From positions 86,114-150,113 of the forward strand of contig DLHY01000007.1 in NCBI GenBank assembly GCA_002483445.1: a stretch of 64,000 bases of DNA. The letters are read 5' to 3'. Below are positions 8,851 through 61,642 of this stretch, piece by piece (position 1 is the stretch's first letter; the number at the start of each line of letters is the position of its first letter). This DNA comes from Blastocatellia bacterium UBA7656. Its GTDB lineage: Bacteria; Acidobacteriota; Blastocatellia; UBA7656. A model generated the notes under the pieces. That model was not told the origin of the DNA. It worked only from the letters and a program-made list of their open reading frames with translations, and did not search any database. Both the position numbers and the translations under genes were made by a program.

Positions 8851-8955
8851 AAAGGCAAAAGGCAAAAACTGAAATCTTCGCGGCAGAAGGCGATTCCCTC
8901 AGAGTGAAAAAGCATCCCTACTTTTTCATTTTGCCTTTTTACTTTGCCTTCCTGC

Positions 8956-9675
8956 TCATGCGCCGAGATAAGCGGCCCTCACCCGTTCATCGTCCAGCAA
9001 CTCTCGGCCCGCGCCTTCCAGAACCACCCGCCCGTTTTCCAGCACGTAAGCGCGGTCGGCCAGTTTCAAACTCTGCTGGACGTTCTGCTCGACGAGCATC
9101 ACGGTGATTCCATCCCTGTTGAGCCTGCGTATTATGTCGAACATTTCGCGGACGATTATCGGCGCAAGTCCGAGGCTCGGCTCATCAAGCATCAGCAGTC
9201 GCGGGCGGGCCATCAATCCGCGCCCTATGGCTACCATCTGCTGCTCGCCGCCCGAAAGCGTGCCTGCCAGTTGTCGCTCGCGCTCTTTGAGTTTAGGAAA
9301 GAGAGAAAAGACCTCATCGATGGTGTCTGAGTGATGACGGCGAGCCGCGGGGCTTATGGCTCCAAGCTCAAGATTTTCTCTTACGGTCATCATCGGAAAG
9401 AGCCTTCGGCCTTCCGGCACATGAGCTATGCCGCGCGCCGCTACTTTGTGCGATGGCAGTTTTTCGATATGTTCGCCGTCGAAAATTATCTGGCCCGATG
9501 CGCAGGCAACCGCGCTCGATATTGTTTTCAGAGTGGTAGTCTTTCCTGCGCCGTTGGCTCCGACGATGGTGGCGATCTCTCCTTCGCGCACAGCGAGCGA
9601 GACTCCCCAGAGTACCTGAACGTCGCCGTATCGAGCGGTCACATCGCGGAGTTCGAGCAGAGTTTTTTCTTTCAA
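8956..9675 (-). CDS. livF: LivF-like branched-chain amino acid ABC transporter ATP-binding protein (orphan)
   Basis: Walker A (GANGAGKTTTLKTISS), ABC signature (LSGGEQQMVAIGRGL), Walker B (LLMLDEPSLGLAP). The probable start is a TTG giving MKEKTLLELRDV..., preceded by GGAGA; the ORF-track ATG at 9807 adds an unlikely 44-aa extension. No LivG/H/M/K partners are nearby. Confidence 0.75.
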   Translation of the reverse strand: MKEKTLLELRDVTARYGDVQVLWGVSLAVREGEIATIVGANGAGKTTTLKTISSAVACASGQIIFDGEHIEKLPSHKVAARGIAHVPEGRRLFPMMTVRENLELGAISPAARRHHSDTIDEVFSLFPKLKERERQLAGTLSGGEQQMVAIGRGLMARPRLLMLDEPSLGLAPIIVREMFDIIRRLNRDGITVMLVEQNVQQSLKLADRAYVLENGRVVLEGAGRELLDDERVRAAYLGA

Positions 9676-9829
9676 TCCATTCTCCGAAAGAGATTGTGTC
9701 GAGGCGGACGAGTCAATATAAGGTGTCGAATGAAAAGACACAAGCGCAGGAGAGAATTGATTCTGCCGCGGTTGACACTTCCCCGCTCGCTTTGCTAGTT
9801 TACCCATTCCTTCGCGAGAAGGAATTTGA

Positions 9830-10147
9830 TCCTGAGTAGCTCAACGGTAGAGCATCCGGCTGTGACGATGGAAAATCGCAGCTTCCACAGGCGACTGTGG
9901 TTGAAAAATCGGGTGAATTCAGGAAACCCTAAACCGACGCGAGTCGGCATGGCAATCCTGAGCGAAGCCTGCTGAAAGGCATCACAGTAAGCAGGAACGT
10001 GCAGAGACTTAGGGATTGAGGAGCCTGACCGATAAAATCCCGTAAGCGCCCGACAACTCTCAGAGTTGATGAGATAGTCCGCGCCTGAGCGAAAGCTCAG
10101 GATAAAGCGTAACCGGAGGGTTGTAGGTTCGAATCCTACCTCAGGAG
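9830..10147 (+). tRNA. tRNA-Thr(CGU) gene interrupted by a group I intron (exon 1 9830-9861, intron 9862-10107, exon 2 10108-10147); no encoded CCA
   Basis: Acceptor 5' tcctgag pairs with 3' ctcagga. D-arm gctc/aacggta/gagc. Anticodon stem tccgg...ccgga. Spliced loop cU|CGUAA with anticodon CGU. T-arm gtagg/ttcgaat/cctac. The intervening 246 nt end in G and contain group-I-like elements. Confidence 0.75.
9862..10107 (+). ncRNA. group I (IC3-like) self-splicing intron within tRNA anticodon loop
   Basis: 5' exon ends in U33 and the intron ends in G. An R-like element (gtgCAGAGACUuagg) and an S-like element (gatgAGAUAGUCcg) can form P7 (GACU/AGUC). A P9 hairpin cctgagc-GAAA-gctcagg sits just before the terminal G. 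A GNRA-capped hairpin gccgac-GCGA-gtcggc is also present. Confidence 0.7.
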
Positions 10148-10154
10148 CTTTTTC

Positions 10155-11190: not shown

Positions 11191-11284
11191 TTCAGCCTCC
11201 TCTGGAAAACAGTTTTCAGTTTTCAGTTTTCAGTTCTCACCATTTCAGAGCGTCACTGAAAATGACATCGATGACTCCTTCGAA

Positions 11285-19687: not shown

Positions 19688-19912
19688 CGCAGTTCCCTTC
19701 TCCCCCTTTTGATCGCCACTGATGATAGCAAACCCCGGAGCGAGTGTGGAGGATCGCACGTTGACTGACTCCCTGAAGGGCGATAGCATTCCTGAGCGTT
19801 GCAGGACGCGCTTGAAATTTTTTTTCACATGGCTGTAATCGCGCCGCGCATTTATTGCATCAATAGCTTTGTGCAAGGCGTTTTGGAACAATTCAATTCA
19901 GGGAGACTGCAC

Positions 19913-22189
19913 ATGGCGGGGGTCGCCGGTATGTATTGCTCAGGCTGCGGAAACAAAGTTGCTGGATCAGTTCGCTTCTGTCCCCGCTGCGGAGCCTCCC
20001 AGACGCCTTACGAAAAGGCGATGCTCGTCTGGCAGCAAAAGCTCATCGGCGCTTCCATCGGCGGCAGATATCGGATAGATGAAAAAATAGGCGCGGGCGG
20101 AATGGGTACGGTCTATCGCGCTCGACGATTACTCATCGGCGATGATGTCGCAGTAAAAATTCTTCACTTTGAAATAATGAGCGATCCGCAGGCAGTCGAA
20201 CGCTTCCGCCGTGAGGCTCAGGCCGCAGCGCGACTCAAGCATCCGAACGCGGTGATGATTTACGATTTCGGCGTGTCCGAAGACGGATTGCTTTATCTGG
20301 TCATGGAACTGGTCGAGGGCCAGAGCCTTCGTCAGATCATACGCGAGCGCGGGCCGCTCTCTCCTCAGACGGCGACGGAAATAGTCAGCCAGGTCTGCGC
20401 CGTGCTTGAAGAATCACACCGGCAAAATATCATTCATCGCGACCTCAAACCCGACAACATCATGGTAAGCACGACGGCGGAAGGCTTCCGCGTCAAGGTG
20501 CTGGATTTCGGCATAGCGAAGCTCAGAGACACGTCGCTTACGTCAGCCAACATCACCAAGACCGGCGCAATGATGGGGACGCCGCATTATATGTCGCCTG
20601 AACAGTGCATGGGCGAAGAGTTGGACGGGCGCTCGGATGTTTACAGCCTCGGCATAGTCCTTTATGAAATGCTGACGGGAGTGGTGCCGTTCAATTCGCC
20701 CGTCTCGTCTGCGGTCGTCGTTCAGCATGTCACTCAGCAGCCTCCGCCGCTGCGGGCGATAAACGTCAGCGTCTCGCCCAAGGTTGAGGCGGTCGTTATG
20801 AGCGCGCTTGAGAAGCAGCGCGAAGCGCGGCCTCAGACGGCGACGGCATTGACCGAACAACTGGCCGCCGCCATCAGCAGCGGGTTTATCACTCAACCGA
20901 ACACGATGCGCTCGGGAACGATGAATGCGCTTCCGCACAGATCGCCATCGGGCGCGGCTCAGGCGTCTTTGCCGGTGACGCGAATATCGACTCCCGCTAA
21001 TGAAGCGATGACGACTGTAGCCGATGCGCAGACTCAGACTGAAACGCCTTCGCGCGCTGCATCGAAGAAACGCGCGCTTTTGATTTTAAGCATTGTGGCG
21101 GCCCTTGCAGTGATCGGAGCGGCGATAGTTCTGATGCTGCGAGCGCGGGCTGGCGAAGTGCGAGGGCAGATCAACGATAATCAGTCGCAGAGCGTCGTGG
21201 AGCAGAGTGAACCGCCTGGGCCGAGTGATCGGGTTGTGTCTACGGTTCCGCCGCCCGGTATGGGTTACGTTGCGGGCGGAGAGTTTTTGATGGGCAATGA
21301 TACGGGCAGCGAAGGGGAGCGCCCGCAGCATAGCGTCGTGGTCAAACCGTTCTTCGTTGATTTGTATGAAGTGACCGGCAGCGATTACGAAAAGTTCATG
21401 GAAGCGACGGGCCACCCGGCTCCGCAGGGATGGACGAGCGGGCATCATCCGCGCGGCGCGGGGAGAAAACCCGTGACCGGAATCAGTTGGGATGACGCCG
21501 CGGCTTATGCGAAGTGGGCGGGCAAGCGATTGCCTACGGAAGAAGAGTGGGAGTTTGCGGCGCGCGGGACGACAGGCTTTCGCTATACGTGGGGCAACGA
21601 TTGGCGTCCTCGTCTGGCTAATGCAGACACTTCGGCGCACGGACACGGAGGAGCGGCTCACGTCGGCGAACACATGGGAGTTTCGCCCTTCGGCGCGTTC
21701 GATATGATAGGCAATGCGTGGGAATGGACGGCCAGCGATTTCGCGGCCTATCCCGGCGGGCAGGCGCAAGCGGAAGCGGGATTGAAGGTGATTCGCGGCG
21801 GTTCGTGGGCGAGCAACAGAAACGAAGCAACGACGACTTTCCGCAAAGGTCTTCCGGCAACAGGAGCCGCCGATTACAGTCAGGTCGGTTTTCGCTGCGT
21901 CAGCGATGCCGTGGTTTCGCAAACCCCGGATACCTCAAAAGCTCCTACGGGGATGAACGTCGTGGGAGTGAGCAGCGAGGCAGCACAGGAGCAAAAGAAA
22001 AAGGTAGCGCCGAAAGCTGTGAAGAAGTCCCCGCCTCCGCGACCGAAAAAGACAGATTCGGATCGCAAAAAACGGCGCAGCGACCGAGAGTTGCGGGAGG
22101 ACGATTCAGACGATTCAGATGATCGAGAGCGATGGTCGTCATCACATTCACGCCGACGACGGGACTTTCAAGATCGAGATCGAAATTAA
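19913..22189 (+). CDS. Ser/Thr protein kinase fused to C-terminal FGE-sulfatase (SUMF1/DUF323) domain; N-terminal zinc-ribbon; charged low-complexity tail
   Basis: CSGCGN...CPRCG zinc ribbon. Kinase motifs (VAVKIL, HRDLKPDNIM, DFGIAK, TPHYMSPEQ). A TM segment. FGE-sulfatase motifs (RGGSW, GFRCV, MIGNAWEWT). Confidence 0.85.
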   Translation: MAGVAGMYCSGCGNKVAGSVRFCPRCGASQTPYEKAMLVWQQKLIGASIGGRYRIDEKIGAGGMGTVYRARRLLIGDDVAVKILHFEIMSDPQAVERFRREAQAAARLKHPNAVMIYDFGVSEDGLLYLVMELVEGQSLRQIIRERGPLSPQTATEIVSQVCAVLEESHRQNIIHRDLKPDNIMVSTTAEGFRVKVLDFGIAKLRDTSLTSANITKTGAMMGTPHYMSPEQCMGEELDGRSDVYSLGIVLYEMLTGVVPFNSPVSSAVVVQHVTQQPPPLRAINVSVSPKVEAVVMSALEKQREARPQTATALTEQLAAAISSGFITQPNTMRSGTMNALPHRSPSGAAQASLPVTRISTPANEAMTTVADAQTQTETPSRAASKKRALLILSIVAALAVIGAAIVLMLRARAGEVRGQINDNQSQSVVEQSEPPGPSDRVVSTVPPPGMGYVAGGEFLMGNDTGSEGERPQHSVVVKPFFVDLYEVTGSDYEKFMEATGHPAPQGWTSGHHPRGAGRKPVTGISWDDAAAYAKWAGKRLPTEEEWEFAARGTTGFRYTWGNDWRPRLANADTSAHGHGGAAHVGEHMGVSPFGAFDMIGNAWEWTASDFAAYPGGQAQAEAGLKVIRGGSWASNRNEATTTFRKGLPATGAADYSQVGFRCVSDAVVSQTPDTSKAPTGMNVVGVSSEAAQEQKKKVAPKAVKKSPPPRPKKTDSDRKKRRSDRELREDDSDDSDDRERWSSSHSRRRRDFQDRDRN

Positions 22190-23712: not shown

Positions 23713-24819
23713 ATGGAAAGCGCAGACACACAGACACAAGGGATATCGAGTATGACAGCGCCTTTGATTTTAGATTCGCTTGAGATTCAGGGCTTCCGAG
23801 GATTTCGCCATCTGAGCATCGAACGGCTGGGCCGCGTCAACCTGATTGTTGGAAAGAACAGTGTCGGGAAGACTGCGCTTTTGGAAGCGTTATGGCTCTA
23901 TGCAAATCAAGGCTCCCTTTCAATAGTTTGGGAAATTCTGGAAGCCCGCGACGAGAGAAGTCACTCATATTCATCTCGATATCTATCTGGGCCAGAAATT
24001 AAAGAATCATTCATAGGATCAGTATCGGCCATCAAACATTTGTTTTATGGACAAAGAGGTGTGAAAAAACAAATCGTCCAAATTCCTCCTATCCGCATAG
24101 GGCCTCTTAATGCTTATGAGCAAATCCTCGAAATGACTTTGATTCACACTGATCCTAACAAGACGGCACGCCTAGTCAGCGAGTTAGGAATGAGATCAAC
24201 AATTTATCTACTGGATGCCGAACCTTCTCCTACTCGCGAATCTGTTACGACAACTTGCATATTCATTCCTGCAAACGGGTTGAATCTTGCGAAGATCGTA
24301 AGCCTTTGGGACAGCATCGGCTTGACAAACTTGGAGCAGGAAGTGGTCAAATCAATGCAAGTCATTGATAGACGGGTTGAGCGTGTGAATCTTTTGAGCG
24401 ACCCCAACCTCAGTCATGACCAAAGCCGCATACCGAAGGCCAGAATATCTGGAGTTGATGAGCCTGTAGCTTTGCGCAGCCTTGGAGACGGGATGAATCG
24501 TCTCTTCGGAATCGCACTCGCACTGGTAAACGCGAAAGACGGAATGCTGCTCATCGATGAAGTCGAAAACGGGCTTCACTATTCCGTGCAGCCTGATGTG
24601 TGGAGATTGATTTTCGAGACGGCGCGCAATCTCAATGTGCAGGTCTTCGCCACCACTCACAGTTGGGATTGCATCGAGGCATTTCAAAAGGCGGCTGAGG
24701 AAAGCCCGGAAGATGGATTGCTCATCAGGCTGGCTGAGAGGAAAGGCGAAATAATCTCTGATGTATTCAGTGAAGAAGAGCTTGGCATTGCTACCAAAGG
24801 ACAAATCGAGTTGCGTTGA
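23713..24819 (+). CDS. ABC-type AAA ATPase (AAA_21/AAA_15, OLD/AriA/AbiLi-like)
   Basis: Walker A VGKNSVGKTALLEAL near the N-terminus. Walker B and D-loop LLIDEVENGLH, and H-loop ATTHS, near the C-terminus. GC is about 47%, well below the surrounding DNA. Confidence 0.8.
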   Translation: MESADTQTQGISSMTAPLILDSLEIQGFRGFRHLSIERLGRVNLIVGKNSVGKTALLEALWLYANQGSLSIVWEILEARDERSHSYSSRYLSGPEIKESFIGSVSAIKHLFYGQRGVKKQIVQIPPIRIGPLNAYEQILEMTLIHTDPNKTARLVSELGMRSTIYLLDAEPSPTRESVTTTCIFIPANGLNLAKIVSLWDSIGLTNLEQEVVKSMQVIDRRVERVNLLSDPNLSHDQSRIPKARISGVDEPVALRSLGDGMNRLFGIALALVNAKDGMLLIDEVENGLHYSVQPDVWRLIFETARNLNVQVFATTHSWDCIEAFQKAAEESPEDGLLIRLAERKGEIISDVFSEEELGIATKGQIELR

Positions 24820-25457
24820 TTATGGCTGACGGAAATTTACTACTTTTCGAGGGCAAGGACGAATGGTTTGTTTTCCGCAGCTTGATGACTCATCACGGCA
24901 TCGACGTAAAAGTAGCCGAATCAAAAAGCTTTGATGGAATAGCAGACCTGTTAGAAAAATTGCCTGTTCAATTGCGCAGCGATGAGGTAAAGCGACTCGG
25001 CATCGTGGTCGATGCCGACACTGATATTTCATCTCGCTGGCAAGCTATCCGAAATATTCTGATAGCGGGCGACTACACGAACGCGCCCAAATCTCCATCG
25101 CCTGAAGGCACAATTGTTGAGTTGGAAAATTTGTCTCTGGTGCGGGTTCCAAAGGTCGGCGTATGGATTATGCCGGATAACAAACTGCCGGGTATGCTGG
25201 AAAATTTTGTCAGCTTTCTCGGAGCGGCAACCGATCCTTTGTGGGATATCGCTGATGAGTGCCTGAAGCATATCCCGGAAGAACATCGTCGATTCAAAGA
25301 GAGCCAGCGAATCAAGGCCCATCTTCATACCTGGCTGGCGTGGCAGAAAAAGCCGGGTACGCCGCTTGGGCAATCCATTACTGCAAAATTCCTTGACGCC
25401 GACGCTCCGCACGCTCAACAACTCATCGGCTGGATTCGCAGATTGTTCGATCTATAA
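24816..25457 (+). CDS. small TOPRIM-like protein (DUF4276/DUF4435-like partner of the ATPase)
   Basis: ATGA start overlap with the ATPase gene. An N-terminal conserved Glu (LLLFEGKDEW) and a downstream DxD (GIVVDADTD) match a TOPRIM catalytic core. 213 aa. Confidence 0.55.
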   Translation: MIMADGNLLLFEGKDEWFVFRSLMTHHGIDVKVAESKSFDGIADLLEKLPVQLRSDEVKRLGIVVDADTDISSRWQAIRNILIAGDYTNAPKSPSPEGTIVELENLSLVRVPKVGVWIMPDNKLPGMLENFVSFLGAATDPLWDIADECLKHIPEEHRRFKESQRIKAHLHTWLAWQKKPGTPLGQSITAKFLDADAPHAQQLIGWIRRLFDL

Positions 25458-27950: not shown

Positions 27951-29294
27951 ATGGGGGAAAAGAAAAAGTGGACGGTGATGGTCTATCTGAGCGGGGACAA
28001 CAATCTGAGCGAAGAATGCGTGTGGGCGCTCAAGGAGATGTACAGAATCGGAGCGAACGACCGCGTGGCGGTCATCGCTCAGTATGATTCCAAAGCGCGC
28101 AATGTTCCGATCTCTCGTTATATCATCGGGCAGAATCCATCCGACGGCGCTCTTGACGAATATGCCAGGGCGCTCAGGATGAGTTCGCGAAAGTCGAAAG
28201 GCTCGCCTCTCTGGCAGGAAGCTTCGGCGTCGGCCAGGATGCTGAGGGATTTTATAATCTGGGGGGCTGATCGTTTCCCAGCGGATAATTACATGGTCGT
28301 CCTTTCCGGTCACGGCAGCGGGGCCGAAGGCGATTATCTGATAAGAGATGATAATCCGCCTTCCTACCTGAGCATCCCGCGTCTTCGCTGGGCGCTTGAG
28401 GAAGCGAAAAAGAAATTGAAACGGATCGACCTACTCGGTCTCGATGCCTGCCTTATGAGCACAGCCGAAGTCGGTTATGAGGTGAAGAAGACGGTCAGGT
28501 TTCTCGTCGGCGCGGAGGGCTTCGAGCCTGACGCCGGCTGGCCTTATCACAGAATTCTGGAAACGCTCAACGCAAGTCCTGATATAAAGCCGCGCGATCT
28601 GGCCTGCGCGATAGTCGAAAAATATACAGGCTATTATTCGGACTATGCGAGCGCGGGCGTATCGGTCGATTTGTCGGCCTGCGATTCGGAAAAAAGCGAC
28701 GCGATGGCGGAGGCCGTAAATCGATTGGCCAAAGTTCTCCGTTCGAGCATAGAGGCGCGCTCGGTTGAAGACGCTGTTTTGCTGGCGCACTGGCGGGCGC
28801 AGTCTTATAAGTTTGAAGACTATGTTGACCTGTTCGATTTTTGCGATCTTCTGGAAGAAGGCTGCGATAACGAGCAGGTCAAAGAGGCGTGCAGTGCAGT
28901 GAAGATTGCGGTTGAAAGTCTCGTGGTGAAGTCGTGCTACAGCGGGGCGGCGTTTCAATACTCGCGAGGAGTTTCGATCTACTTCCCGTGGGCCGAAGTG
29001 ACAGGCAAGTACAAAAATCTTCTTTTCTCGAAGAAGACGAAATGGGACGAATTTCTTCACAAGTATGTCGAGCAGACGCGCCGGGGGCCGCGCGGGCAGG
29101 AAGCGATACGGGGCAAGCTTCAGGTTCAGGGAGCCTCGTCCGCTTCCGAGGTGCGATCTGTTTCCGGTTCCGGGCGATTTACTCCGCCCTGGAGCAGATT
29201 TACCCCTCCCTGGAGCAGAATGGAATCTGCTGTATCAGTGAAGGTGAAGAATCCGCCTATCACCTTCAACAAGGATGAATGTAAGCCTGAGTGA
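27951..29294 (+). CDS. clostripain-like (peptidase family C11) cysteine peptidase, cytoplasmic
   Basis: WTVMVYLSGDNNLSEE at the N-terminus. Catalytic His in VVLSGHGSG and Cys in LLGLDACLMST. A C-terminal short tandem repeat (RFTPPWS x2). Confidence 0.8.
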   Translation: MGEKKKWTVMVYLSGDNNLSEECVWALKEMYRIGANDRVAVIAQYDSKARNVPISRYIIGQNPSDGALDEYARALRMSSRKSKGSPLWQEASASARMLRDFIIWGADRFPADNYMVVLSGHGSGAEGDYLIRDDNPPSYLSIPRLRWALEEAKKKLKRIDLLGLDACLMSTAEVGYEVKKTVRFLVGAEGFEPDAGWPYHRILETLNASPDIKPRDLACAIVEKYTGYYSDYASAGVSVDLSACDSEKSDAMAEAVNRLAKVLRSSIEARSVEDAVLLAHWRAQSYKFEDYVDLFDFCDLLEEGCDNEQVKEACSAVKIAVESLVVKSCYSGAAFQYSRGVSIYFPWAEVTGKYKNLLFSKKTKWDEFLHKYVEQTRRGPRGQEAIRGKLQVQGASSASEVRSVSGSGRFTPPWSRFTPPWSRMESAVSVKVKNPPITFNKDECKPE

Positions 29295-29374
29295 AGGCCA
29301 GCCGGGCTGTTCGCTGGTTTGCTTCTGAGAGTACATTGCGAAATTCGATCCTCGTTTAGCTCCACAGGAGCAAT

Positions 29375-32300
29375 ATGTTTATAGCTGAAAATGATCTGTT
29401 CAACTCCGTAGGGGCGAAATCGCTTTCCATCTTCATGGCGCATTTGTTAGCTGCCATACGACCCAGTGCCCGATTTATATGTGCTTGCGTTCTTTCATTT
29501 TCGTTTCTCTCCCTCCCTGTCGATATCACAGAGCAGCAAGGCAAATGGGTTTTTGCTTCCGAAACCTTGCTCCCAAAAAGGGATCTCAAAGTCTTGCAAC
29601 CAGCTTGCAGAGCCGGGATCAAATCCGATCAGCATCTCAGGAATGTCAATGAATCATTCGCCAATCGAGGAGTCCTTTCGAGAGACAGACTGCGCAGGGA
29701 GCAGGCCAGATCAGCTAATGTCAATGGCAGGTTCCGCATTGCGGCTGAAAAGGCATTTGCAAACGGAGAGCGGCTGTGGAGGGAATGGAAAGCAAAATCA
29801 ATGGAGGAAGCAATAAATCAATACAAGCAAGCTGTGACGATGTGGAGGATCGCCGCGGACAGGCGAGAAGAGGCCCGCATATTGATAGCCCTGGGCGAGG
29901 CATACTATGTTATGGGAAGACTCCAGGCATCCCTCAAAGTGTACGGCCAGGCATTGCGACTCAGCCGAAGCCTCATGGACTTTAGATTAGAGAGCCGCGT
30001 CCTTAGCGATATAGGGTACATTTTCCTTTTTATGGGAGACGACGAAAAAGCTCTTGAGCATTGCAACAAAGCTCTGGCCATTAATCGGTCTGTTCAGGAT
30101 ATCGAAGGAGAAATTCGCAGCCTCAATAATATAGGAGAAATATATCATTTTTCTGAAGACCTGAAACAGTCGCTCGAATTTCTCAATCAGGCTCTGTCGC
30201 TTTGCGATGGATTGGGTGATGGCCGGATTACGGCGCAAACGCTCTTATACTTGGGATACGCCTATTCAGATTTGAACGATACAGATCGGGTGGCTGAATG
30301 CTATAACAAAGCCCTTCCTCTCTGGAAAGCCGCAAATGACAAACGCGGAGAAACTTTGACATTGATAGCGATTGGACACCATTACTCCAAGCTGGGTCTC
30401 AAGCAGGAAGCCCTCAACCATTACGAACAGGCCATGGCAATATGCCGCCCCAGCGGAGACTTGATATCGAAGGCCATGCTGCTCAACGGAAAGGGATATG
30501 TGCTTGAAGAGATGGGCGTATATCGAAGATCGCTTGAAAGCTATTTAGAGGCGCTGAAGCTTTATGATCGTATTGGCATCCGAAAGGCGCAGATAGAAAC
30601 TCTGCTAAAGATCGGCAGCACGTATCACAGGCTCGAAGAAAACCAAAACGCACTGGCTTACTATCGGAAAGCCCAGCCTTTGATTCAAAAACAAAAAAAC
30701 CGATATTTGGAAGCGATCCTTCTGAAATACATCGGAATGGTTTACGACTCAGCAGGCGACAAAACCAAAGCTCTGGATTACTACAACCGCTCGCTTGCGT
30801 TGAGCCAATCGACAGCAGACCGCAGAGAAGAAGCCTATACGCTCAACCTCATTGGAAATATCTATCGCGCTACGGGCCATAATCAAAAAGCTCTCGACTA
30901 TCATCAAAAGGCTCTCTCCTACAATCGCGCAGCCGGAGACCCATTCGGTGAGACGACCACTCTCTTCAACATCGCCCGCATCCATCGCGATACGCGAAAT
31001 CTTTCAGAAGCCCGCCATAATATCGAGGAGGCTCTCCGTATAGCCGAAAAACTTCGAGCCGATGTCATACGTCAAGACCTGCGCGCCTCATATCTCGCAA
31101 CCGTGCGGCAAAACTATGAGCTTTATATCGACATCCTCATGCAGATGCATAAACAAGCGGGCGGCGAAGGACTCGACTCTCTGGCCCTCGGCGTAAGCGA
31201 GCAGGCGCGGGCAAGAACGCTTCTTGAAACGCTCGTCGAGGCCCGCGCCGACATTCAACAGGGAGCAGACTCGGCGCTTATTAGGCGCGAGCGCGAATTG
31301 CAACGACAGATCGATGAAAAAGCCGAAGCTCAGGCCCGACTGCCCGCAGGCGCACACACCCGCGAACAGGCAGAAGCCGCGGCAAGAGAGATCGATAACC
31401 TTCTCTCGGAGCGCGAGCAGGTTCGCGCGCAAATACGCGCGAAGAACCCGCGCTATGCCGCGCTCGCTCAACCCCAACCTCTCAGATTCGAAGAGATTCA
31501 GAAGCTGCTCGACCGCGACGCCGCGCTTCTGGAATACGCGCTGGGCGATGATCGCAGTTATCTGTGGGTCGTGACTTCAGATTCGCTCGCCTGCCGCGAG
31601 CTTCCGTCGCGCGAGGAAATCGAAAACGCCACGCGAGAAGTTTACTCGCATCTGACAGCACGCAACCGCAGCGTGAAAGGCGAAGCGGCATTTTCAGCGC
31701 AAGCGCGCGCTGATCGGCAATACGCGAAAGCATCGGCGCGGCTGGCGGAAATGATCATCGCGCCCGCAGCATCCGAGATTAAAAAGAAGCGACTCGTGAT
31801 CGTCGCCGACGGTGCGCTCCAATACATCCCTTTTCGCGCGCTGCCCTCTCCACAGTGGTCAGCGGTCAGTGGTCAGTGGTCAGTTGCAGACAGCCGGAGT
31901 CGGACAACGGACAACGGACAACGGACAACGGACGCCTACAGGCCGATGATACTCGATCATGAAATCATCAACCTTCCGTCCGCTTCGGTGCTGGCAGTGC
32001 TGAGAAACGAAACCGCGGGGCGAGCGACGGCTCCCAAAGCGGTCGCGGCGCTGGCCGATCCCGTCTTTTCAAGAAACGATTCGCGGATGCTTAAAAGCGC
32101 GTCTTCGATCAACTCTCGGTCGAATCGCTATACGGGAGTGAAAAGGCAGGAAGAAAACCTCTCGCGACTGAGTTTTTCGAACACAGAAGCCGAAGCCATA
32201 CTTGCGGCGGTCGGCAGGGAAGAATCCCTGATGGCTACAGGCTTCGAAGCAAGCCGCGCCACGGCCCTGAGTCCCGATCTCAGTCAGTACCGAATAATAC

Positions 32301-32737
32301 ATTTTGCGACGCATGGAATTCTGGACAACGAGCGCCCGGAGCTTTCACGCATAATACTTTCGCTGTTCGACCGCGAGGGGAGAGAGCAGAACGGCTCTCT
32401 CAGGCTTCACGAAATATACAACATGAGGCTTGCGGCGGAGATGGTCGTTTTGAGCGCGTGCGAGACGGCGCTCGGTCGCGAGATTCGAGGCGAAGGACTC
32501 GTGGGGCTGACGAGAGGTTTCATGTACGCCGGGGCTGCGCGAGTGGTGGCAAGCCTCTGGAAAGTGGATGATGCGGCGACGGCTGAATTGATGAAAAGAT
32601 TTTACGAAAAGATGTTTCGCCAGGGGCTTAGGCCAGCCGAGGCTCTGCGCGCCGCTCAGATCGAAATGCTCTCGCAGAGGCGTTGGCGCGCGCCTTACTA
32701 CTGGGCCGCCTTCATTATTCAGGGAGACTGGCGGTGA
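29375..32737 (+). CDS. TPR-repeat / CHAT-domain protease (1120 aa)
   Basis: More than ten TPR units, then a CHAT core (HFATHG ... VLSACETALG ... ASLWKVDD). The true start is probably at MAHLLAAI (29435), which may be a signal peptide. Confidence 0.85.
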   Translation: MFIAENDLFNSVGAKSLSIFMAHLLAAIRPSARFICACVLSFSFLSLPVDITEQQGKWVFASETLLPKRDLKVLQPACRAGIKSDQHLRNVNESFANRGVLSRDRLRREQARSANVNGRFRIAAEKAFANGERLWREWKAKSMEEAINQYKQAVTMWRIAADRREEARILIALGEAYYVMGRLQASLKVYGQALRLSRSLMDFRLESRVLSDIGYIFLFMGDDEKALEHCNKALAINRSVQDIEGEIRSLNNIGEIYHFSEDLKQSLEFLNQALSLCDGLGDGRITAQTLLYLGYAYSDLNDTDRVAECYNKALPLWKAANDKRGETLTLIAIGHHYSKLGLKQEALNHYEQAMAICRPSGDLISKAMLLNGKGYVLEEMGVYRRSLESYLEALKLYDRIGIRKAQIETLLKIGSTYHRLEENQNALAYYRKAQPLIQKQKNRYLEAILLKYIGMVYDSAGDKTKALDYYNRSLALSQSTADRREEAYTLNLIGNIYRATGHNQKALDYHQKALSYNRAAGDPFGETTTLFNIARIHRDTRNLSEARHNIEEALRIAEKLRADVIRQDLRASYLATVRQNYELYIDILMQMHKQAGGEGLDSLALGVSEQARARTLLETLVEARADIQQGADSALIRRERELQRQIDEKAEAQARLPAGAHTREQAEAAAREIDNLLSEREQVRAQIRAKNPRYAALAQPQPLRFEEIQKLLDRDAALLEYALGDDRSYLWVVTSDSLACRELPSREEIENATREVYSHLTARNRSVKGEAAFSAQARADRQYAKASARLAEMIIAPAASEIKKKRLVIVADGALQYIPFRALPSPQWSAVSGQWSVADSRSRTTDNGQRTTDAYRPMILDHEIINLPSASVLAVLRNETAGRATAPKAVAALADPVFSRNDSRMLKSASSINSRSNRYTGVKRQEENLSRLSFSNTEAEAILAAVGREESLMATGFEASRATALSPDLSQYRIIHFATHGILDNERPELSRIILSLFDREGREQNGSLRLHEIYNMRLAAEMVVLSACETALGREIRGEGLVGLTRGFMYAGAARVVASLWKVDDAATAELMKRFYEKMFRQGLRPAEALRAAQIEMLSQRRWRAPYYWAAFIIQGDWR
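31853..31936 (+). repeat. two tandem heptanucleotide repeat tracts inside the CHAT-domain coding region: (CAGTGGT)~4 then (GGACAAC)~4
   Basis: cagtggt cagcggt cagtggt cagtggt ... ggacaac x4 ggacgcc. They encode the insert SPQWSAVSGQWSV...TTDNGQRTTD. Confidence 0.8.
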
Positions 32738-32849
32738 TACTCGATCTTTAGCCGAGAGCCGAGGGTCAGTAATTTTTCAAACCTTATCAACTGTCAACCA
32801 TGCCACTCCGATTTTTCTTTTTGCCTTTCAAGCCCGGTTAGAGTAATTT

Positions 32850-33503
32850 TTGTCATTCGCACACTTCTCAGGCGGGAGAGAAATGCCAATTCAGAAAAGA
32901 ATCTGGTCTCTGACTGAGGAGGCTTTCAACAGCCTGCTTGCGCAACTTGACGCCGACGCGGAAGCCGCCGCACAGAAATACGAAATCATACGGGCTGAGA
33001 TAACAAAGCTCTTCGAGTGCCGCGGCTGCGCGTCGCCTCTCGATCTTGCTGACGAAACGATCAACCGGGTCGCGCGCAGAATAATCGAAGGTCAGGAAAT
33101 CCCGCCCCACTCCATCGGGGCATATTTTTACGGAGTCGCCCGCAACGTGATGCGAGAACATCTGCGCGATCCTGAAAGAGATTGGACTTCGATTGAAACG
33201 CTTTCGCCTTCGCATCATCCCGCCGAGAACCCTGAGCAGACGGACAGCCAGCGCCTTGAGCGATACAGCCTTGAACGAAGACTCGAATGCCTGGAAAGCT
33301 GCGTCGAAAAACTCCCGCCCGACATGCGCGACCTCGCCATCTCTTACTACAAGGGCGGAGAAGAAACCAGAATAGAGAATCGCCGACGGATGGCTCTCTC
33401 GCTCGGCATCCCGCTCAACACTTTGAGGATTCGCGTTCATCGAATCCGCGAAAAACTGGAAACCTGTCTCTTCACCTGCCTGAGAGAGTCGACCGAGAGT
33501 TGA
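32850..33503 (+). CDS. ECF-type RNA polymerase sigma factor
   Basis: Sigma-70 region 2-like block (YFYGVARNVMREHLRD) and a region-4 helix-turn-helix (MRDLAISYYKGGEETRIENRRRMALSLGIPLNTLRIRVHRIREKL). The start may be at MPIQKR (32883). Confidence 0.7.
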   Translation: MSFAHFSGGREMPIQKRIWSLTEEAFNSLLAQLDADAEAAAQKYEIIRAEITKLFECRGCASPLDLADETINRVARRIIEGQEIPPHSIGAYFYGVARNVMREHLRDPERDWTSIETLSPSHHPAENPEQTDSQRLERYSLERRLECLESCVEKLPPDMRDLAISYYKGGEETRIENRRRMALSLGIPLNTLRIRVHRIREKLETCLFTCLRESTES

Positions 33504-33542
33504 AATGAAATTCGGTTTTACGCATTACATTATGGAGGAAGA

Positions 33543-34463
33543 GTGAAAGAGGGCGGCGACAACGAGATTTTGACCCGATACCTGCTCGGAGAGTTGAGCG
33601 AACAGGAACAGGAAAGGGTCGAGGAGCGATACTTAGGCGAACGCGAAATGTTCGAGCGATTGCTCGCGGTCGAAGACGAGATCATTGACGCTTACACGAT
33701 GGGAAGTCTCAAGGGAGCGGAGCGCGAAAGATTCGAGAAACATTTTCTTCGCTCTTCTGCGCGGCGCGACCGCGTGGAGTTTGCCGAGACCTGGGCCGTT
33801 TATATTGATCGCCTGCCTGAAACCTCTCCAGATGGAAAAGCTTCCGAGAGTCGGTTTTTCAACCTCTTCAGAAATCGGGCAGCGATGGTTCCGCTGGCCG
33901 CGATTGCGTTGCTCATAATCGTCTCGGCGTGGCTCATCGTCGAGACAGCATGGCTTAAAAACGAACTTGAAGAGGTCTCGTCTGAGCGCGCATCGCTCGA
34001 AAGCAGGCAGCAGGAACTCGAACAGCAAATCGAGGAGCAAACCTCGCGCAACCGCCAGCTTGAAGGCGAGCTTGAATCCGAGAGACAACGCAATCAGCAG
34101 ATTGATTCGAGGCAGGCATCTTCCGAAATCGCTTTTCTTCTTTCATCAAACGTCGCTCGCGGCGCGGGCAGCGGCAAAGAACTTGTCATAACTGCCGGAA
34201 CGGAGCGCGTGCGATTGCAGGCAGTCTTGATAGAAGACCTTCACTCTGGCTACAGGGCTGCGCTGAAAACGGTCGAAGGAGCGATCATCAAAAGCTGGTC
34301 GTCGCTTGCATCTCAGGGCGGGAGAAACGGCAGGATTATCCTTATGACATTGCCCGCCGCCGCGCTCAAATCAGGAGACTACATTCTCACCCTCACAGGC
34401 GTTACGGATTCAGGCGCGACCGAAACGATAGACGAGTATCCATTCAGAGTCGTGAAGAGATAG
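33543..34463 (+). CDS. putative membrane anti-sigma factor (single TM, coiled-coil periplasmic part)
   Basis: Lies directly downstream of the ECF sigma gene. N-terminal LLGELSEQEQERVEERYL...ERERFEKHF anti-sigma-like helix region, a TM segment AAIALLIIVSAWLIV, then a Gln/Glu-rich coiled coil. Confidence 0.55.
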   Translation: MKEGGDNEILTRYLLGELSEQEQERVEERYLGEREMFERLLAVEDEIIDAYTMGSLKGAERERFEKHFLRSSARRDRVEFAETWAVYIDRLPETSPDGKASESRFFNLFRNRAAMVPLAAIALLIIVSAWLIVETAWLKNELEEVSSERASLESRQQELEQQIEEQTSRNRQLEGELESERQRNQQIDSRQASSEIAFLLSSNVARGAGSGKELVITAGTERVRLQAVLIEDLHSGYRAALKTVEGAIIKSWSSLASQGGRNGRIILMTLPAAALKSGDYILTLTGVTDSGATETIDEYPFRVVKR

Positions 34464-34713: not shown

Positions 34714-35064
34714 ATGAGTACAGCCCCGCACGTTCCAAACTGCACGGATGCTCAACTGGCCGCGAGATGCTCCCATCGTCCGGTTGATGAAATGGCCTGG
34801 CAGGAATTCGTGCGCCGCTTTCACACTACGATCCGCGCCAGTGTGCTTAAAACTCTCTCGCTGACCAGCGCGATGGATGATGGCCATATCGTCGAAGAAC
34901 TCACCCAGGCGGTTTATCTGAGATTGATCGAAGATCGGGGTTTGGCGTTGAAAGAAGTAGAATGCGCCCGCGCGGATTCGATGAGCAAATACCTGATGCT
35001 GATCGCGATCAGCGTCGTCCGCGATCACACGCGGAAACAATTTCTTACGAGCCGCCCTAATTAA
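34714..35064 (+). CDS. sigma-70 region-2-only protein (truncated ECF sigma-like; possible gene remnant)
   Basis: The region 2 pattern (FVRRFHTTIRASVLKTL...AVYLRLIED) is present, but the protein ends after 116 aa without a region 4. Confidence 0.35.
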   Translation: MSTAPHVPNCTDAQLAARCSHRPVDEMAWQEFVRRFHTTIRASVLKTLSLTSAMDDGHIVEELTQAVYLRLIEDRGLALKEVECARADSMSKYLMLIAISVVRDHTRKQFLTSRPN

Positions 35065-44034: not shown

Positions 44035-45924
44035 CTAGCGTAACGTCTTCACAAGGCGGAAGCCGACAGTGTGGAATGGTTGATCAGGCTTGCTACGGTT
44101 GCGGAACGCCGACCGCAAGTCCCGCGCGAAGATCGACCAAGCGCCGCCACGTAATACCCGGAGATTTGTATCACCGCCTTCCCAAACGCTTCCATCGTTC
44201 GGCGCACCTTCATAGTTTCCATGCCAGTTGTCCATGCACCACTCCCACACATTTCCATGCATATCGTGCAGCCCGAATCCGTTTGGTTTCTTTTGACCGA
44301 CGGAATGAGTCTTGCTATCAGGGTCGTCGAAGTACCATGCCATATCATCCAGCCTTCCCGCATACGGTACTGTCGTCGTCGCACGGCACGCATACTCCCA
44401 TTCCGCTTCCGTCGGCAATCGATACGTCTTCCCCGTCGCTTTTGACAACCGTTCGCAAAATTCTATCGCTTCTACCCAACTCACCCTCTCAACAGGCAGG
44501 TCGTCGCCCTCGAAATGCGACGGGTCGGGATTCAAGTCAATCTTCACCTTCGTCAATTTCGTCGCAACAGCCCGCCACTGCGCCTGCGTCACTTCGTACC
44601 TGCCCATGTAAAACGACGACACCATCACCTCATGTCTCGGCCCTTCGTTGGGGTGCCGGTGTTTTTCAGTATCAAGCGATCCCATCCAGAATTTCCCGGC
44701 AGGCACGCGAACTATCTCTATCGAAACGCCGTCGATGGTCTCAGTGTAGGTTTGCAGTTCCACATGCTCCTGTTTGCTTTCACTTGATGGAGCAGGTTGC
44801 GTGTTCGTCGGATTGGTCGAAGTCGACTTTGCCACTTCCAGTTGGCGCACCCGGTTTCGAGCAAGCCCCGCGAATCTGCCGTTCGGATACTCTTTCAAAT
44901 ACTCGCGGAAATCCTCCGCGTCCGAACTGTTCTTGATGCTCTCCCAGAATGACAATTCAACCGCAGCAGCATCCACACCTGTCGGATTGCTCGCCGGAGC
45001 AGTCACTCGCACCGTTACTGAAATGACAAGCTCATCAGCCCTGTATCCTTCGATGTAAGCCCACGGGCGTTGCTTTTTCTCCTGCCCAATATCCATCTGC
45101 ACCCGGCGCGGCACTTTCTCCTGAAGATATCGCACAAGCCCCGCAAGCGTCACCTCTCCCCGCTCGTTCGCCGCTTCGCCCTTCAATCCCTCGACCAGAA
45201 ACCATGTGAAGTATCCCTGATTCTTTTCCGTGTACTCATAAGCCCGCTCGCCTACTTCCGTTGCATAAATCGTCGCAAACGCTTCGACCTCACGGTTCCG
45301 CGTATCGAAGTCGAAGCGATAGGCTCTCGACATAGGGTTGACTCCGTCCGCTCGTCCGCCCGGATCGTTGCGGCAGGCATCGAGTATGACGAGTACCTGT
45401 TTCGCGCCCGTCTGTCGAATCAAATCCTTCATCTGTGAAACTGAGATCGAGGTATTTTCGAGAAGCGAGAGGCTGCCGACTCGTACATCCCAGGGCAGGA
45501 GAAAGGCTCGCTCTCCACGTTGCATTCCGTGACCGGCGAATGATACGAGCAGCAACCCGTCTCGCGGCACAAGCCCGTTGAGGTTGATCAAACGCTGAAG
45601 TATGTTTGCCCGCGATGGCTCTCGTTCTTCAGGCTCTCCCGTAGCGAGAAGCGTGACCTGATCAGCAGGAAAGCCCGCATACTTTACGAGAGCTTCGGCC
45701 AGAGTTCGTGCGTCTTTCGCAGCGCCGTAGAGAGGATTGATTTGCTTGTCTCGGTATTCATCGACTCCGATGACGAGCGCATAGCGTTTCGATTTATCGG
45801 GCAGTTTGTGGACGACTTTGACTTCTCTCCCCTGATCACGCGAATGCACTTTTGACAGATATGGAAACGAAATCAGAAAGAGACTGAACAGGATTGCAAA
45901 AACTCGCGGCGGTCCGGTTTTCAT
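44035..45924 (-). CDS. secreted caspase-like (peptidase C14) domain fused to FGE-sulfatase domain
   Basis: Signal peptide (MKTGPPRVFAILFSLFLISFP). Caspase His in SFAGHG and Cys in ILDACRND. C-terminal FGE-sulfatase motifs (HGNVWEWC, RGGAW, GFRLV). The start was re-placed at the ATG at 45924, which has an AGGAGAAGG Shine-Dalgarno. Confidence 0.85.
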   Translation of the reverse strand: MKTGPPRVFAILFSLFLISFPYLSKVHSRDQGREVKVVHKLPDKSKRYALVIGVDEYRDKQINPLYGAAKDARTLAEALVKYAGFPADQVTLLATGEPEEREPSRANILQRLINLNGLVPRDGLLLVSFAGHGMQRGERAFLLPWDVRVGSLSLLENTSISVSQMKDLIRQTGAKQVLVILDACRNDPGGRADGVNPMSRAYRFDFDTRNREVEAFATIYATEVGERAYEYTEKNQGYFTWFLVEGLKGEAANERGEVTLAGLVRYLQEKVPRRVQMDIGQEKKQRPWAYIEGYRADELVISVTVRVTAPASNPTGVDAAAVELSFWESIKNSSDAEDFREYLKEYPNGRFAGLARNRVRQLEVAKSTSTNPTNTQPAPSSESKQEHVELQTYTETIDGVSIEIVRVPAGKFWMGSLDTEKHRHPNEGPRHEVMVSSFYMGRYEVTQAQWRAVATKLTKVKIDLNPDPSHFEGDDLPVERVSWVEAIEFCERLSKATGKTYRLPTEAEWEYACRATTTVPYAGRLDDMAWYFDDPDSKTHSVGQKKPNGFGLHDMHGNVWEWCMDNWHGNYEGAPNDGSVWEGGDTNLRVLRGGAWSIFARDLRSAFRNRSKPDQPFHTVGFRLVKTLR

Positions 45925-45961
45925 AGAATCCTTCTCCTGTTCGCAATCACGATTCGGATTA

Positions 45962-46624
45962 TCATTCGGGCCTGTGCGACTCTGCCCATCGTTGCATAGA
46001 GTCGATTGCCTCATCCTGTCCCTCGGTTTTGGCCTGCTCGACGAAACCAGACATCGCGTCATCGGAGAGAAAAGGAAATGCTCGGCTCGAAGCGGCTTCC
46101 GTGTACTGCTCACCCTCAAGCCTGTAGAAGTGCATCCGTTTTCCGTCATAGCGCCATATCTCAGGCACTCCGAGGGCGACATAGATTGAAAACTTCTCTA
46201 TTGACCCGTGGGTGAGATCGATTTCAACGACGAGGTCGGGCGGCAGGTCGATGGAGAGATCGAGTTTCCTTTTGCCGATCATTCGATCAGCATTCTGCAC
46301 CCAGTAACATCCATCAGGTTCCGCGCCTTTGGCTTTCGCCTCGCGCCTGAGCGTAGCCGACCCACGAGTTTCCATGCGCCATCTCAGCCCGCGAGCAAGA
46401 GACCGCAGCAAATCATGAATGATATCTTTGTATGCTTCGCGTTCAGGCAGCGGACTCATAACTTCAAGCCTCCCGTCGTTGAAACTGACCCGGACGTGAT
46501 AGCCCTCGCCGAGATCCGAGAGCAGTTGCTCGTACTCATCCCAGCCGACATCGAACAGACGAAGATGACCGCCCGCAGGCAATCGTTCGATGACTTCGAT
46601 AAAGCTTTGCATCTCTGCGCTCAT
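45962..46624 (-). CDS. Uma2 family endonuclease (DUF820, PD-(D/E)xK fold)
   Basis: IEVIERLPAGGHLRLFDVGWDEYEQLL ... PDLVVEIDL pattern. Confidence 0.75.
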   Translation of the reverse strand: MSAEMQSFIEVIERLPAGGHLRLFDVGWDEYEQLLSDLGEGYHVRVSFNDGRLEVMSPLPEREAYKDIIHDLLRSLARGLRWRMETRGSATLRREAKAKGAEPDGCYWVQNADRMIGKRKLDLSIDLPPDLVVEIDLTHGSIEKFSIYVALGVPEIWRYDGKRMHFYRLEGEQYTEAASSRAFPFLSDDAMSGFVEQAKTEGQDEAIDSMQRWAESHRPE

Positions 46625-46734: not shown

Positions 46735-47652
46735 CTAGCGTAACGCTCTCACAAGGCGGAAGCCGAGGTCGGGCGAGCGATAGCTGGGCCTGTCGCCGGA
46801 GCGGAGCGCCGACCGGCAGTTCCGCGCAGAGTCGCCCCAACCGCCGCCGCGAAACACCCTCTCCGAGCCAGCAGATGGCCCCGTCGGATCAACGATCAGA
46901 ATAGGGGTATAGTAATCCTTCGAAAACCAGTCCATGCACCACTCCCACACATTTCCATGCATATCGTACAGCCCGAACCCGTTTGGTTTCTTTTGACCGA
47001 CAGCGTGTGTCTGGCATCCGTTTTCCAGAATTCGTTTGACATAATTGCTCCGATCCGTCTTCCAAATCTTATCCGCATCAAGACGCAATCTGCCCGAATT
47101 ATTTCCATACCAACTCATCCCATCCAGGCTCCCCGCGTGCGGCCCTCCCGTCCCCGCTCTGCACGCATACTCCCACTCCGCTTCCGTAGGCAGGCGATAT
47201 GTCTTTCCCGTCGTCCCGGAAAGCCTTTCACAAAACTCGACAGCTTCTTCCCAACTTACCCGCTCAACCGGCAGGCTGTCGCCTTTGAAACCCGATGGGT
47301 CAGCGTTGAGGTCGATCTTCACCTTAGGCAACGCGGCGACCGCTCGCCATTCGGACTGCGTCACTTCGTACTTCGCCATGTAAAACGACGACACTGATAC
47401 CTGATGCTGCGGCCCTTCATCGCTGTCGCGGTCTGCTTCACCAGCAGGCGATCCCATCAGGAATTTCCCGGCAGGCACAAGAACCATCTCTATCGCCGCG
47501 CCGCCTGCCGTCTCGCTGTAAGTTCGCGGTTCATCAGGCTCTTTCTTCTGATTGCCGGATTGCGCTTCGAAGACGGGCGGAAACGAAATCGAAAGAATCA
47601 AAAACAGTGTGACCCATGTGGCAAAAGCGATACGCAGGGTCTTCGTTTTCAT
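46735..47652 (-). CDS. secreted FGE-sulfatase domain protein (paralog of the C-terminal domain of 44035-45924)
   Basis: FGE-sulfatase motifs are present. Its leader and Shine-Dalgarno are near-identical to the paralog's (PNRD.EQEKDSMKT). Confidence 0.85.
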   Translation of the reverse strand: MKTKTLRIAFATWVTLFLILSISFPPVFEAQSGNQKKEPDEPRTYSETAGGAAIEMVLVPAGKFLMGSPAGEADRDSDEGPQHQVSVSSFYMAKYEVTQSEWRAVAALPKVKIDLNADPSGFKGDSLPVERVSWEEAVEFCERLSGTTGKTYRLPTEAEWEYACRAGTGGPHAGSLDGMSWYGNNSGRLRLDADKIWKTDRSNYVKRILENGCQTHAVGQKKPNGFGLYDMHGNVWEWCMDWFSKDYYTPILIVDPTGPSAGSERVFRGGGWGDSARNCRSALRSGDRPSYRSPDLGFRLVRALR

Positions 47653-47924
47653 AGAATCCTTCTCCTGTTCATAATCACGATTCGGCTTTGCGGCTATTGA
47701 ATCAGAAGCGGAGGATTTCATCAACGCATCGAGGCGATTGAACTTTAAGCTCAACCTGCCTCATTTCAATCACGATCTTCAATGAAGCGAATAACCAGCC
47801 GCCTCCATTTTTCAGGGCAACACTTCAAACATATCCGCTCATCCCACCCCTGCGCTCGCATCCGGGCAGCAGTCCGAATCCCGTTCAACTTTAACTGAAT
47901 CACCCGGCGAGAAGGGGGACAGAC

Positions 47925-61537: not shown

Positions 61538-61642
61538 TCGTGATGGGTGATGGGTGATAGGTGATGGGGGATAGGAAAAGAGATGATAAATGAGTTGTCT
61601 GACTGCCACCCATTACCCATCACCTATCACCCATCACCCATC
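61538..61642. repeat. long inverted repeat built from GGTGAT(G/A)GG periodic units (about 27-bp stem, about 40-nt loop)
   Basis: gatgggtgatgggtgataggtgatggg pairs with cccattacccatcacctatcacccatcacccatc. Confidence 0.7.

Follow-up and report, generated by a model that had tools for sequence, protein, structure and literature searches.

A CHAT-domain protease encoded with a divergent sigma factor and its membrane anti-sigma factor in Acidobacteriota: a candidate split counterpart of Myxococcus DdvA/DdvS

Genes and features of the locus

The stretch of DNA analysed here, referred to as the window, comprises 64,000 nucleotides (nt) of Blastocatellia bacterium UBA7656 (contig DLHY01000007.1, positions 86,114 to 150,113). 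Our subject is a group of four co-directional genes on its forward (+) strand, which also holds all features of the locus given below. From 5' to 3', the open reading frames (ORFs) encode a C11 (clostripain-family) cysteine peptidase of 447 amino acids (aa; 27951-29294), a 1120-aa separase/Csx29-like cysteine protease combining tetratricopeptide repeats (TPRs) with a CHAT domain (29375-32737), a divergent sigma factor of the extracytoplasmic function (ECF) type (32850-33503) and a single-pass anti-sigma factor of 306 aa (33543-34463), just as they had been described in a first-pass annotation made by a model from the letters of the window. The last three genes form a module that recurs across Acidobacteriota, which we read, with slightly better than even confidence, as a switch that frees the sigma factor by regulated proteolysis.

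The 1120-aa protein matches the Pfam CHAT model with 223.7 bits, besides many matches to TPR models. Its TPR superhelix spans residues ~140-580 (29792-31114; helices 96-542 in the AlphaFold2 (AF2) model), whilst the CHAT protease domain covers residues 787-1118 (31733-32728). The catalytic dyad had been called intact and indeed is so, as His980 (32312-32314) and Cys1029 (32459-32461) are invariant in 60/60 homologues (alignment A2) and in 62/62 sigma-linked CHAT domains. In the AF2 model (predicted local distance difference test (pLDDT) 82.6), a helical middle part lies between the long TPR superhelix and a caspase-like domain. A Foldseek search with this model found separase (4e-15), DdvA (6e-15) and Csx29 (1.6e-13) without separating the three; searched by sequence, the PDB yielded TPR or marginal matches only, whether the query was the CHAT protein, the CHAT domain or the sigma profile. 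The likeness to Csx29 suggested at first therefore stands for the fold of the enzyme. With the curated NCBIfam models, the scores are far too low: 17.9 bits for Csx29 (NF041237, cut-off 300) and 19.6 for CASP-sigma (NF041236, cut-off 100). Because Foldseek places separase, DdvA and Csx29 together, the modelled enzyme may be described as Csx29-like, with a cellular context that appears closer to that of DdvA. The TPR superhelix is presumed to be a sensor that binds a ligand or a partner.

Close to its N-terminus, the protein carries a 15-residue hydrophobic segment of the signal-peptide or membrane-anchor type (residues 34-48, FICACVLSFSFLSLP, 29474-29518), preceded by a basic stretch with RPSAR just before the segment. 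The ATG at 29375 and the coding stretch after it are kept in L001 and L084, two closely related loci. When a 12-mer with a Kyte-Doolittle value >= 2.0 inside the first 70 aa was taken as signal or anchor, 48/60 members of the TPR-CHAT family were found to possess one versus 0/85 controls (0/32 sigma factors and 0/53 anti-sigma N-termini), and the 12 exceptions are apparently for the most part 5'-truncated gene calls. In many relatives, a PPC-like beta domain follows the signal. Because of this difference from the controls, the TPR-CHAT protein is predicted to be exported and to work in the extracytoplasmic space, into which the linker and the Ig-like domain of the anti-sigma factor also project.

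The anti-sigma factor starts with a helical, presumably cytoplasmic domain (aa 1-95) that gives a weak Pfam zf-HC2 match and lacks the zinc ligands. It is followed by a transmembrane (TM) helix (aa ~113-135, 33879-33947), a coiled coil or variable linker (aa 136-190) and an Ig-like beta-sandwich (aa 195-305, 34125-34457), as delineated by alignment A3 and the AF2 model. The model (pLDDT 85.4), in which the Ig-like domain is confidently built, is consistent with the predicted topology of an N-terminus inside and a C-domain outside the cytoplasm. Foldseek returned only generic Ig-like folds for the C-domain. A near-invariant arginine, Arg206, lies in a disordered loop (alignment A3, AF2 model).

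The sigma factor exceeds the TIGR02937 cut-off of 42.9 bits with 44.5 bits, stays below that of Pfam region 4 (19.2 bits, cut-off 25.7) and reaches only E 0.05-0.16 when its profile is compared to sigma factors in the PDB. Its ORF opens at 32850, and the probable start is the ATG at 32880, which gives 206 aa and matches its homologue P0001. We collected 1001 homologues, chiefly from Blastocatellia/Pyrinomonadaceae. The family shares four conserved cysteines in a CxxxC ... CxxxC pattern, positioned before region 4 and at its end, with C136, C140 and C199 invariant and C195 kept in at least 90% (P0001 numbering, alignment A1); they may represent a metal or redox site within the sigma factor.

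The C11 peptidase is recognized by Pfam Peptidase_C11 (PF03415) with 140 bits (cut-off 25.8, E 1.9e-40). Its dyad, likewise reported as intact, aligns with that of clostripain (PDB 9cip) at His121 (28311-28313) and Cys167 (28449-28451), both invariant in 11 homologues (alignment A4). The cytoplasmic location proposed for it agrees with our results: neither here nor in any complete homologue does the upstream sequence leave space for a signal peptide, and 63/65 homologues are devoid of a hydrophobic stretch before the first strand, whereas clostripain has a secretion signal. C11 and the sigma factor are thus both predicted to be cytoplasmic. The low-complexity C-terminal tail of C11 (29076-29291), traced by Tandem Repeats Finder (TRF) and alignment A4, contains a tandem peptide repeat, RFTPPWS x2 (29176-29219), and closes with a conserved VKNPP motif (29244-29258).

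TRF also detected two in-frame heptanucleotide arrays, CAGTGGT x4.6 and CGGACAA x4.7, at 31853-31933 within the CHAT-domain reading frame. They encode a loop that is disordered in the model (segment 810-833, pLDDT < 50). The arrays are the same in L001, and L084 has a GGCAGCA heptamer at that site. Phase variation is conceivable, as a change by one unit would shift the frame. Further heptanucleotide tandem repeats are present in the window at 11210-11239, 61540-61575 and 61607-61643.

Downstream of the anti-sigma gene lies a 116-aa ORF (34714-35064) that weakly resembles sigma-70 region 2 (Pfam Sigma70_r2, E 1.3e-3, under the cut-off). It is kept in the closest strains only and may be the remnant of a second sigma gene; its membership in the module is doubtful.

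Conservation across Acidobacteriota and sister forms

In order to see how far the arrangement is conserved, alignment A1, built from 32 sigma homologues, was scanned against one genome per GTDB species, and the loci found were scored by tblastn with the window proteins. This provided 80 sigma loci with 39-56% sigma identity from Blastocatellia/Pyrinomonadaceae, Thermoanaerobaculia, Holophagales and Solibacter-like metagenome-assembled genomes. TPR-CHAT is encoded directly upstream of the sigma gene on the same strand in 52/80 loci, downstream beyond the anti-sigma gene in 3/80 and close by in another arrangement in 4/80; 5/80 loci are truncated upstream and 16/80 have no CHAT gene. The anti-sigma N-domain is found directly downstream of the sigma gene in 73/80 loci. 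The synteny that the first-pass annotation had named as a check is borne out in related genomes for these three genes. The window-type anti-sigma C-domain occurs at 38 loci, 36 of which have CHAT, the remaining 2 being truncated upstream. Several genomes harbour two or three modules, some of them in tandem. A profile search for the anti-sigma family yielded 5,231 clusters (50% identity) at E <= 1e-30, a number that rises to 11,818 at E <= 1e-10. Clustering of all neighbouring ORFs at the 80 loci brought up no further conserved partner gene besides C11, and no description of the acidobacterial split module was met in those of the papers searched that deal with both the CHAT domain and ECF factors.

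Between the CHAT stop and the sigma start lie 50 nt in the median and at most 35 nt in 23/52 loci, and some of the genes overlap. Because these gaps are short or negative, CHAT, sigma and anti-sigma genes are probably co-transcribed. A scan with sigma-70 and terminator consensus sequences stayed at chance level. Three-way alignments revealed a conserved block of ~75 nt upstream of the sigma gene, in which no recognizable ECF -35/-10 elements were seen. Enumeration of dyad motifs upstream of 47 CHAT genes delivered clade-specific footprints only, from Thermoanaerobaculia, where conserved non-coding elements consist of GTAGCTTAGCGCGAAACCCGCCGCGTTT followed by TGGAAyG-N16-GGTAAAAT (L028-L030, L034-L036, L042, L046, L049, L062, L063); the latter is promoter-like in appearance. 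As the promoter and terminator searches gave no support, it is the short gaps from which the operon structure is deduced.

The C11 peptidase is an optional fourth component. Viewed from the sigma side, it is present at 9/80 loci and also in L001, L084 and L085, which are close relatives; these occurrences fall into three clades or more. Viewed from its own side, in a metagenome scan seeded with the C11 alignment, which delivered 25 loci whose downstream sequence reaches 4.3 kb or more, TPR-CHAT follows right after C11 in 22/25 loci, and sigma is also in range in 16. The link of a second clan CD protease to the TPR-CHAT gene claimed at the outset can therefore be confirmed for this C11 subfamily. 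Module-linked C11s share the repetitive C-terminal tail, which ends in [MLIV][KR]NPP: all 34/34 with this motif have TPR-CHAT downstream, while 8/14 without it have none (Fisher p 8e-6, not corrected for phylogeny).

Three sister loci show a different architecture. At L033, L054 and L077, the gene after sigma encodes a fusion of ~1200 aa in which the anti-sigma N-domain and a TM helix (~110-145) are followed by TPRs and, at the C-terminus, a CHAT domain; the latter matches Pfam at E 1e-60 to 1e-63 and retains both catalytic residues. The L054 fusion aligns with the window anti-sigma factor over aa 5-120 (E 4e-17), with the window CHAT protein over aa 265-1117 (E 4e-36) and with DdvA (8rot_B) at E 1.4e-6. 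In the sigma tree, the three fused loci nest among the split modules. They are Rosetta-stone fusions with the DdvA architecture.

Another locus, L055, has in the CHAT position a gene for an exported subtilase of 1103 aa that carries a P-domain (6421-9732), ahead of sigma and a window-type anti-sigma factor. Because this subtilase fills the place of CHAT, it argues for an exported protease as a conserved requirement of the module. At 2480-2700 of the same locus, ~4 kb upstream, a short CRISPR-like periodic repeat with 5 copies was noted; such repeats were met in 3/162 loci only.

Most of the 16 CHAT-less loci belong to one of two clades that stand apart in the sigma tree (for example L011, L012, L014, L015, L017, L020, L023, L024 and L067). 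There, the sigma factor has an N-terminal extension of ~130 aa (335-373 aa in total) and is followed by a soluble protein of 91-120 aa that consists of the anti-sigma domain only. A divergently encoded protein of ~800 aa with Trans_reg_C and a PD40 beta-propeller was also observed in these clades.

Comparison of the window with L001, which comes from a nearly identical strain (95-100% nt identity elsewhere), uncovered a divergent cassette at 28995-30800, with 76-87% nt identity as compared to 93-100% in the flanks. It spans the C11 tail and the N-terminal/TPR half of the CHAT gene, including the 5' two-thirds of the TPR region. The rate of synonymous substitution (dS) is 0.58-0.82 in the cassette versus 0.03-0.08 elsewhere, and the ratio of nonsynonymous to synonymous substitution (dN/dS) is 0.18-0.25. 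Positive selection on the TPRs was considered and is rejected on these values; since dS is raised too at a dN/dS of 0.18-0.25, the cassette points to the import of an allele by recombination.

The same comparison showed a second divergent island with 64-81% identity. It holds an AAA_15/AAA_21 ATPase and a DUF3226 protein (23713-25457, +), which PADLOC matches to PDC-M38A/B, a candidate pair for defence, with E-values of 7e-96 and 6e-55; the neighbour clustering of the 80 loci did not find this pair kept beside the module. Elsewhere in the window, three FGE-sulfatase domain proteins are encoded at 44035-46182 (-), 19799-22189 (+) and 46735-47754 (-), a set made up of a Peptidase_C14 (caspase) fusion, a Ser/Thr kinase fusion and one stand-alone protein. 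The Peptidase_C14 fusion represents a third clan CD protease in the window. At 9830-10148 (+), a tRNA gene is split by a group I intron (Rfam RF00028 at 9854-10101, 78 bits, E 3.7e-18). ARAGORN, which gave no tRNA in a default run, called it, with introns allowed, as a tRNA-Thr(CGT) whose anticodon loop holds an intron of 246 nt, the anticodon call being uncertain.

A proposed proteolytic switch and its alternatives

The observed gene content, conserved arrangement and intact dyads, together with the predicted compartments and the fused and protease-swapped sister forms, are the basis on which we infer substrate, order of cleavage, signal and regulon. Our preferred reading, the slightly better than even one introduced above, is a regulated-proteolysis switch for the ECF-type sigma factor that would be a split version of DdvA/DdvS from Myxococcus. 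Through its cytoplasmic N-domain, the single-pass anti-sigma factor would tether the sigma factor to the membrane, with the exported TPR-CHAT protein acting on the other side together with the coiled-coil linker and the Ig-like domain. Upon sensing a signal by the TPR region, in many relatives along with the N-terminal PPC-like domain, the His980/Cys1029 dyad would become activated and cut the extracytoplasmic part of the anti-sigma factor, which would constitute site-1 cleavage. The near-invariant Arg206 in its disordered loop is a candidate for the position of this cut. Separase, clostripain and gingipain R, all of them clan CD proteases, cut after Arg. An RseP-type protease encoded elsewhere in the genome would then cleave the TM helix and free the sigma factor, and C11, where present, could plausibly degrade the freed anti-sigma fragment, corresponding to the ClpXP step in the RseA paradigm.

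Several points weigh against this switch. Cleavage of the anti-sigma factor is conjectural here and a proposal for DdvA too (PMC11506125), and a gene for the RseP-type site-2 protease is absent from the 64 kb window. The role given to C11 is pure conjecture, and most modules work without it. The export call is based on a hydrophobicity heuristic instead of SignalP, and the n-region of the window protein is unusually long (33 aa) without a clean AxA cleavage site. Lastly, neither an ECF-type promoter nor a regulon could be defined from the motif searches and alignments.

The alternative that survives best, though we regard it as unlikely, turns the direction of control around: TPR-CHAT, and C11 where present, would be outputs of the sigma factor, namely co-transcribed effector proteases that would remodel or break down envelope or foreign proteins, with the Ig-like domain of the anti-sigma factor as sensor. 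Conserved neighbours of ECF genes often are members of the regulon, the CHAT gene is part of the same operon-like unit, the anti-sigma factor has a folded extracytoplasmic domain of its own, and the replacement of CHAT by a subtilase would suit a generic exported effector just as well. However, the CHAT gene is located upstream of sigma, where targets are usually found downstream, and the type of the anti-sigma C-domain co-varies with the presence of CHAT. Because TPR-CHAT is a covalent part of the anti-sigma factor in the three fused sister loci, we place it in the sensing machinery and not among the outputs.

It seems even less probable that TPR-CHAT serves as an RseB-like sensor or co-anti-sigma partner on the extracytoplasmic domain of the anti-sigma factor, with its protease aimed elsewhere, for instance at a signalling pro-peptide or at itself, and another protease in charge of site 1. 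The strict invariance of the dyad (62/62) shows that catalysis matters, a co-encoded or fused partner would be the simplest substrate, and the active site of DdvA faces the anti-sigma linker (PMC11506125).

The first-pass annotation had favoured a cytoplasmic, Craspase-like protease-sigma axis without CRISPR (clustered regularly interspaced short palindromic repeats), in which C11 activates or assists CHAT, the anti-sigma factor is cut in the cytoplasm and the whole acts as a nucleoside triphosphate (NTP)-dependent conflict system. It was right in that neither a CRISPR array nor a cas gene exists across the 64 kb, where we saw no tRNA-linked island either. The axis itself is very improbable in our view. 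The parts of Craspase are cytoplasmic (PMC10028731), whereas the TPR-CHAT family has an N-terminal signal or anchor, which the C11 family lacks, and the anti-sigma factor is membrane-bound. A cascade from C11 to CHAT is unlikely as well, given that the two proteases are predicted to reside in separate compartments and that C11 occurs in only 9/80 modules. Both NCBIfam scores mentioned above, for Csx29 and CASP-sigma, lie far under their cut-offs, and the module contains neither a Csx30/Csx31 analogue nor an NTPase, which also speaks against the conflict system; nor do other loci keep the PDC-M38 pair beside the module. PADLOC gave no match for the four module genes except a generic TPR match. 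A fortuitous adjacency of functionally unrelated genes, finally, can be set aside as effectively refuted by gene fusions and by an arrangement kept across Acidobacteriota classes at 39-56% sigma identity.

Carried further, the proteolytic switch would stand for a very large class of ECF switches in Acidobacteriota, with a stand-alone exported TPR-CHAT protein as sensor and site-1 protease, a subclass in which C11 finishes off the anti-sigma factor in a relay through three compartments, and an exchange of TPR cassettes by which variable biotic ligands, phage- or competitor-derived, are read. We offer this extended scheme as a tentative possibility.

Relation to known systems

The coupling of a CHAT protease to a sigma factor is already known twice, from Craspase and from DdvA. 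DdvA/DdvS of Myxococcus xanthus comprises a transmembrane anti-sigma factor with a periplasmic TPR-CHAT part and an ECF sigma factor (PDB 8ROT/8RW5; PMC11506125, PMC6061681), and DdvA has been proposed to act as a site-1 protease on its own linker, before RseP (PMC11506125). Shared with it are the TPR-CHAT part with an intact His/Cys dyad, extracytoplasmic by prediction in our case, the proposed logic of CHAT as site-1 protease ahead of RseP, and the fused DdvA-like proteins inside the same acidobacterial sigma family, although the DdvA study knew such forms only from Myxococcota and a single Comamonas (PMC11506125). In contrast to DdvA, which is fused to the anti-sigma factor and has a CHCC zinc site, the window protease is a separate exported protein, by prediction, and the window anti-sigma factor retains its own Ig-like domain and has no zinc site. 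Acidobacteriota as the phylum and the optional, putatively cytoplasmic C11 partner are further differences, and no CBASS (cyclic oligonucleotide-based antiphage signalling system) or CRISPR regulon is evident at the window module, where the one defence candidate nearby is the PDC-M38 pair that other loci do not keep.

In type III-E Craspase, Csx29, Csx30 and CASP-sigma are cytoplasmic (PMC10028731). The module resembles it in the TPR-CHAT fold of the Csx29/separase type, but is free of Cas7-11/gRAMP and of a CRISPR array, and its inhibitor is a membrane anti-sigma factor instead of Csx30, with no Csx31. Its protease is predicted to be exported, unlike the cytoplasmic Craspase protease with its soluble inhibitor. 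DdvA/DdvS is the closer functional analogue. A second CRISPR-associated case is the SAVED-CHAT/PCaspase cascade of type III-B, a cytoplasmic system activated by cyclic tri-adenylate (cA3), in which the first protease activates a C14 caspase (bioRxiv 10.1101/2023.06.23.546230). Two clan CD proteases beside a sigma factor are common to both, yet those of the module are assigned to separate predicted compartments, and it has no SAVED domain and no cyclase.

The sigmaE system of E. coli, where RseA is cut by DegS, then RseP, then ClpXP (cited in PMC10028731), offers an analogy for the single-pass anti-sigma factor and for sequential proteolysis across three compartments, with TPR-CHAT as a candidate for the periplasmic and C11 for the cytoplasmic step. 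The proteases differ in being clan CD cysteine enzymes encoded with the sigma factor, as opposed to the serine and AAA+ proteases of E. coli. The ECF54 group has CHAT, subtilase or carboxypeptidase genes as neighbours and is described without an anti-sigma factor (PMC8999054). Sigma genes flanked by CHAT or subtilase are a common trait, and the swap of CHAT for subtilase at L055 echoes this mix; the module differs by its dedicated membrane anti-sigma factor (73/80), in a comparison made by gene context only.

For DdvA, clipping of the anti-sigma factor by CHAT is still a proposal, in part since protease and substrate share one polypeptide. The split acidobacterial form has them as two proteins that can be expressed, mutated and mixed independently, and the cleavage hypothesis therefore becomes directly testable. 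In view of the 5,231 anti-sigma clusters and the several paralogous modules per genome, the split module may be a major signalling route in soil Acidobacteriota, and a dedicated cytoplasmic C11, if true, would be a new role for the C11 peptidase family. Set beside the known systems, the module is a new form of the TPR-CHAT/anti-sigma/ECF theme, one that is split, very abundant and, unexpectedly, joined by a C11 partner dedicated to it.

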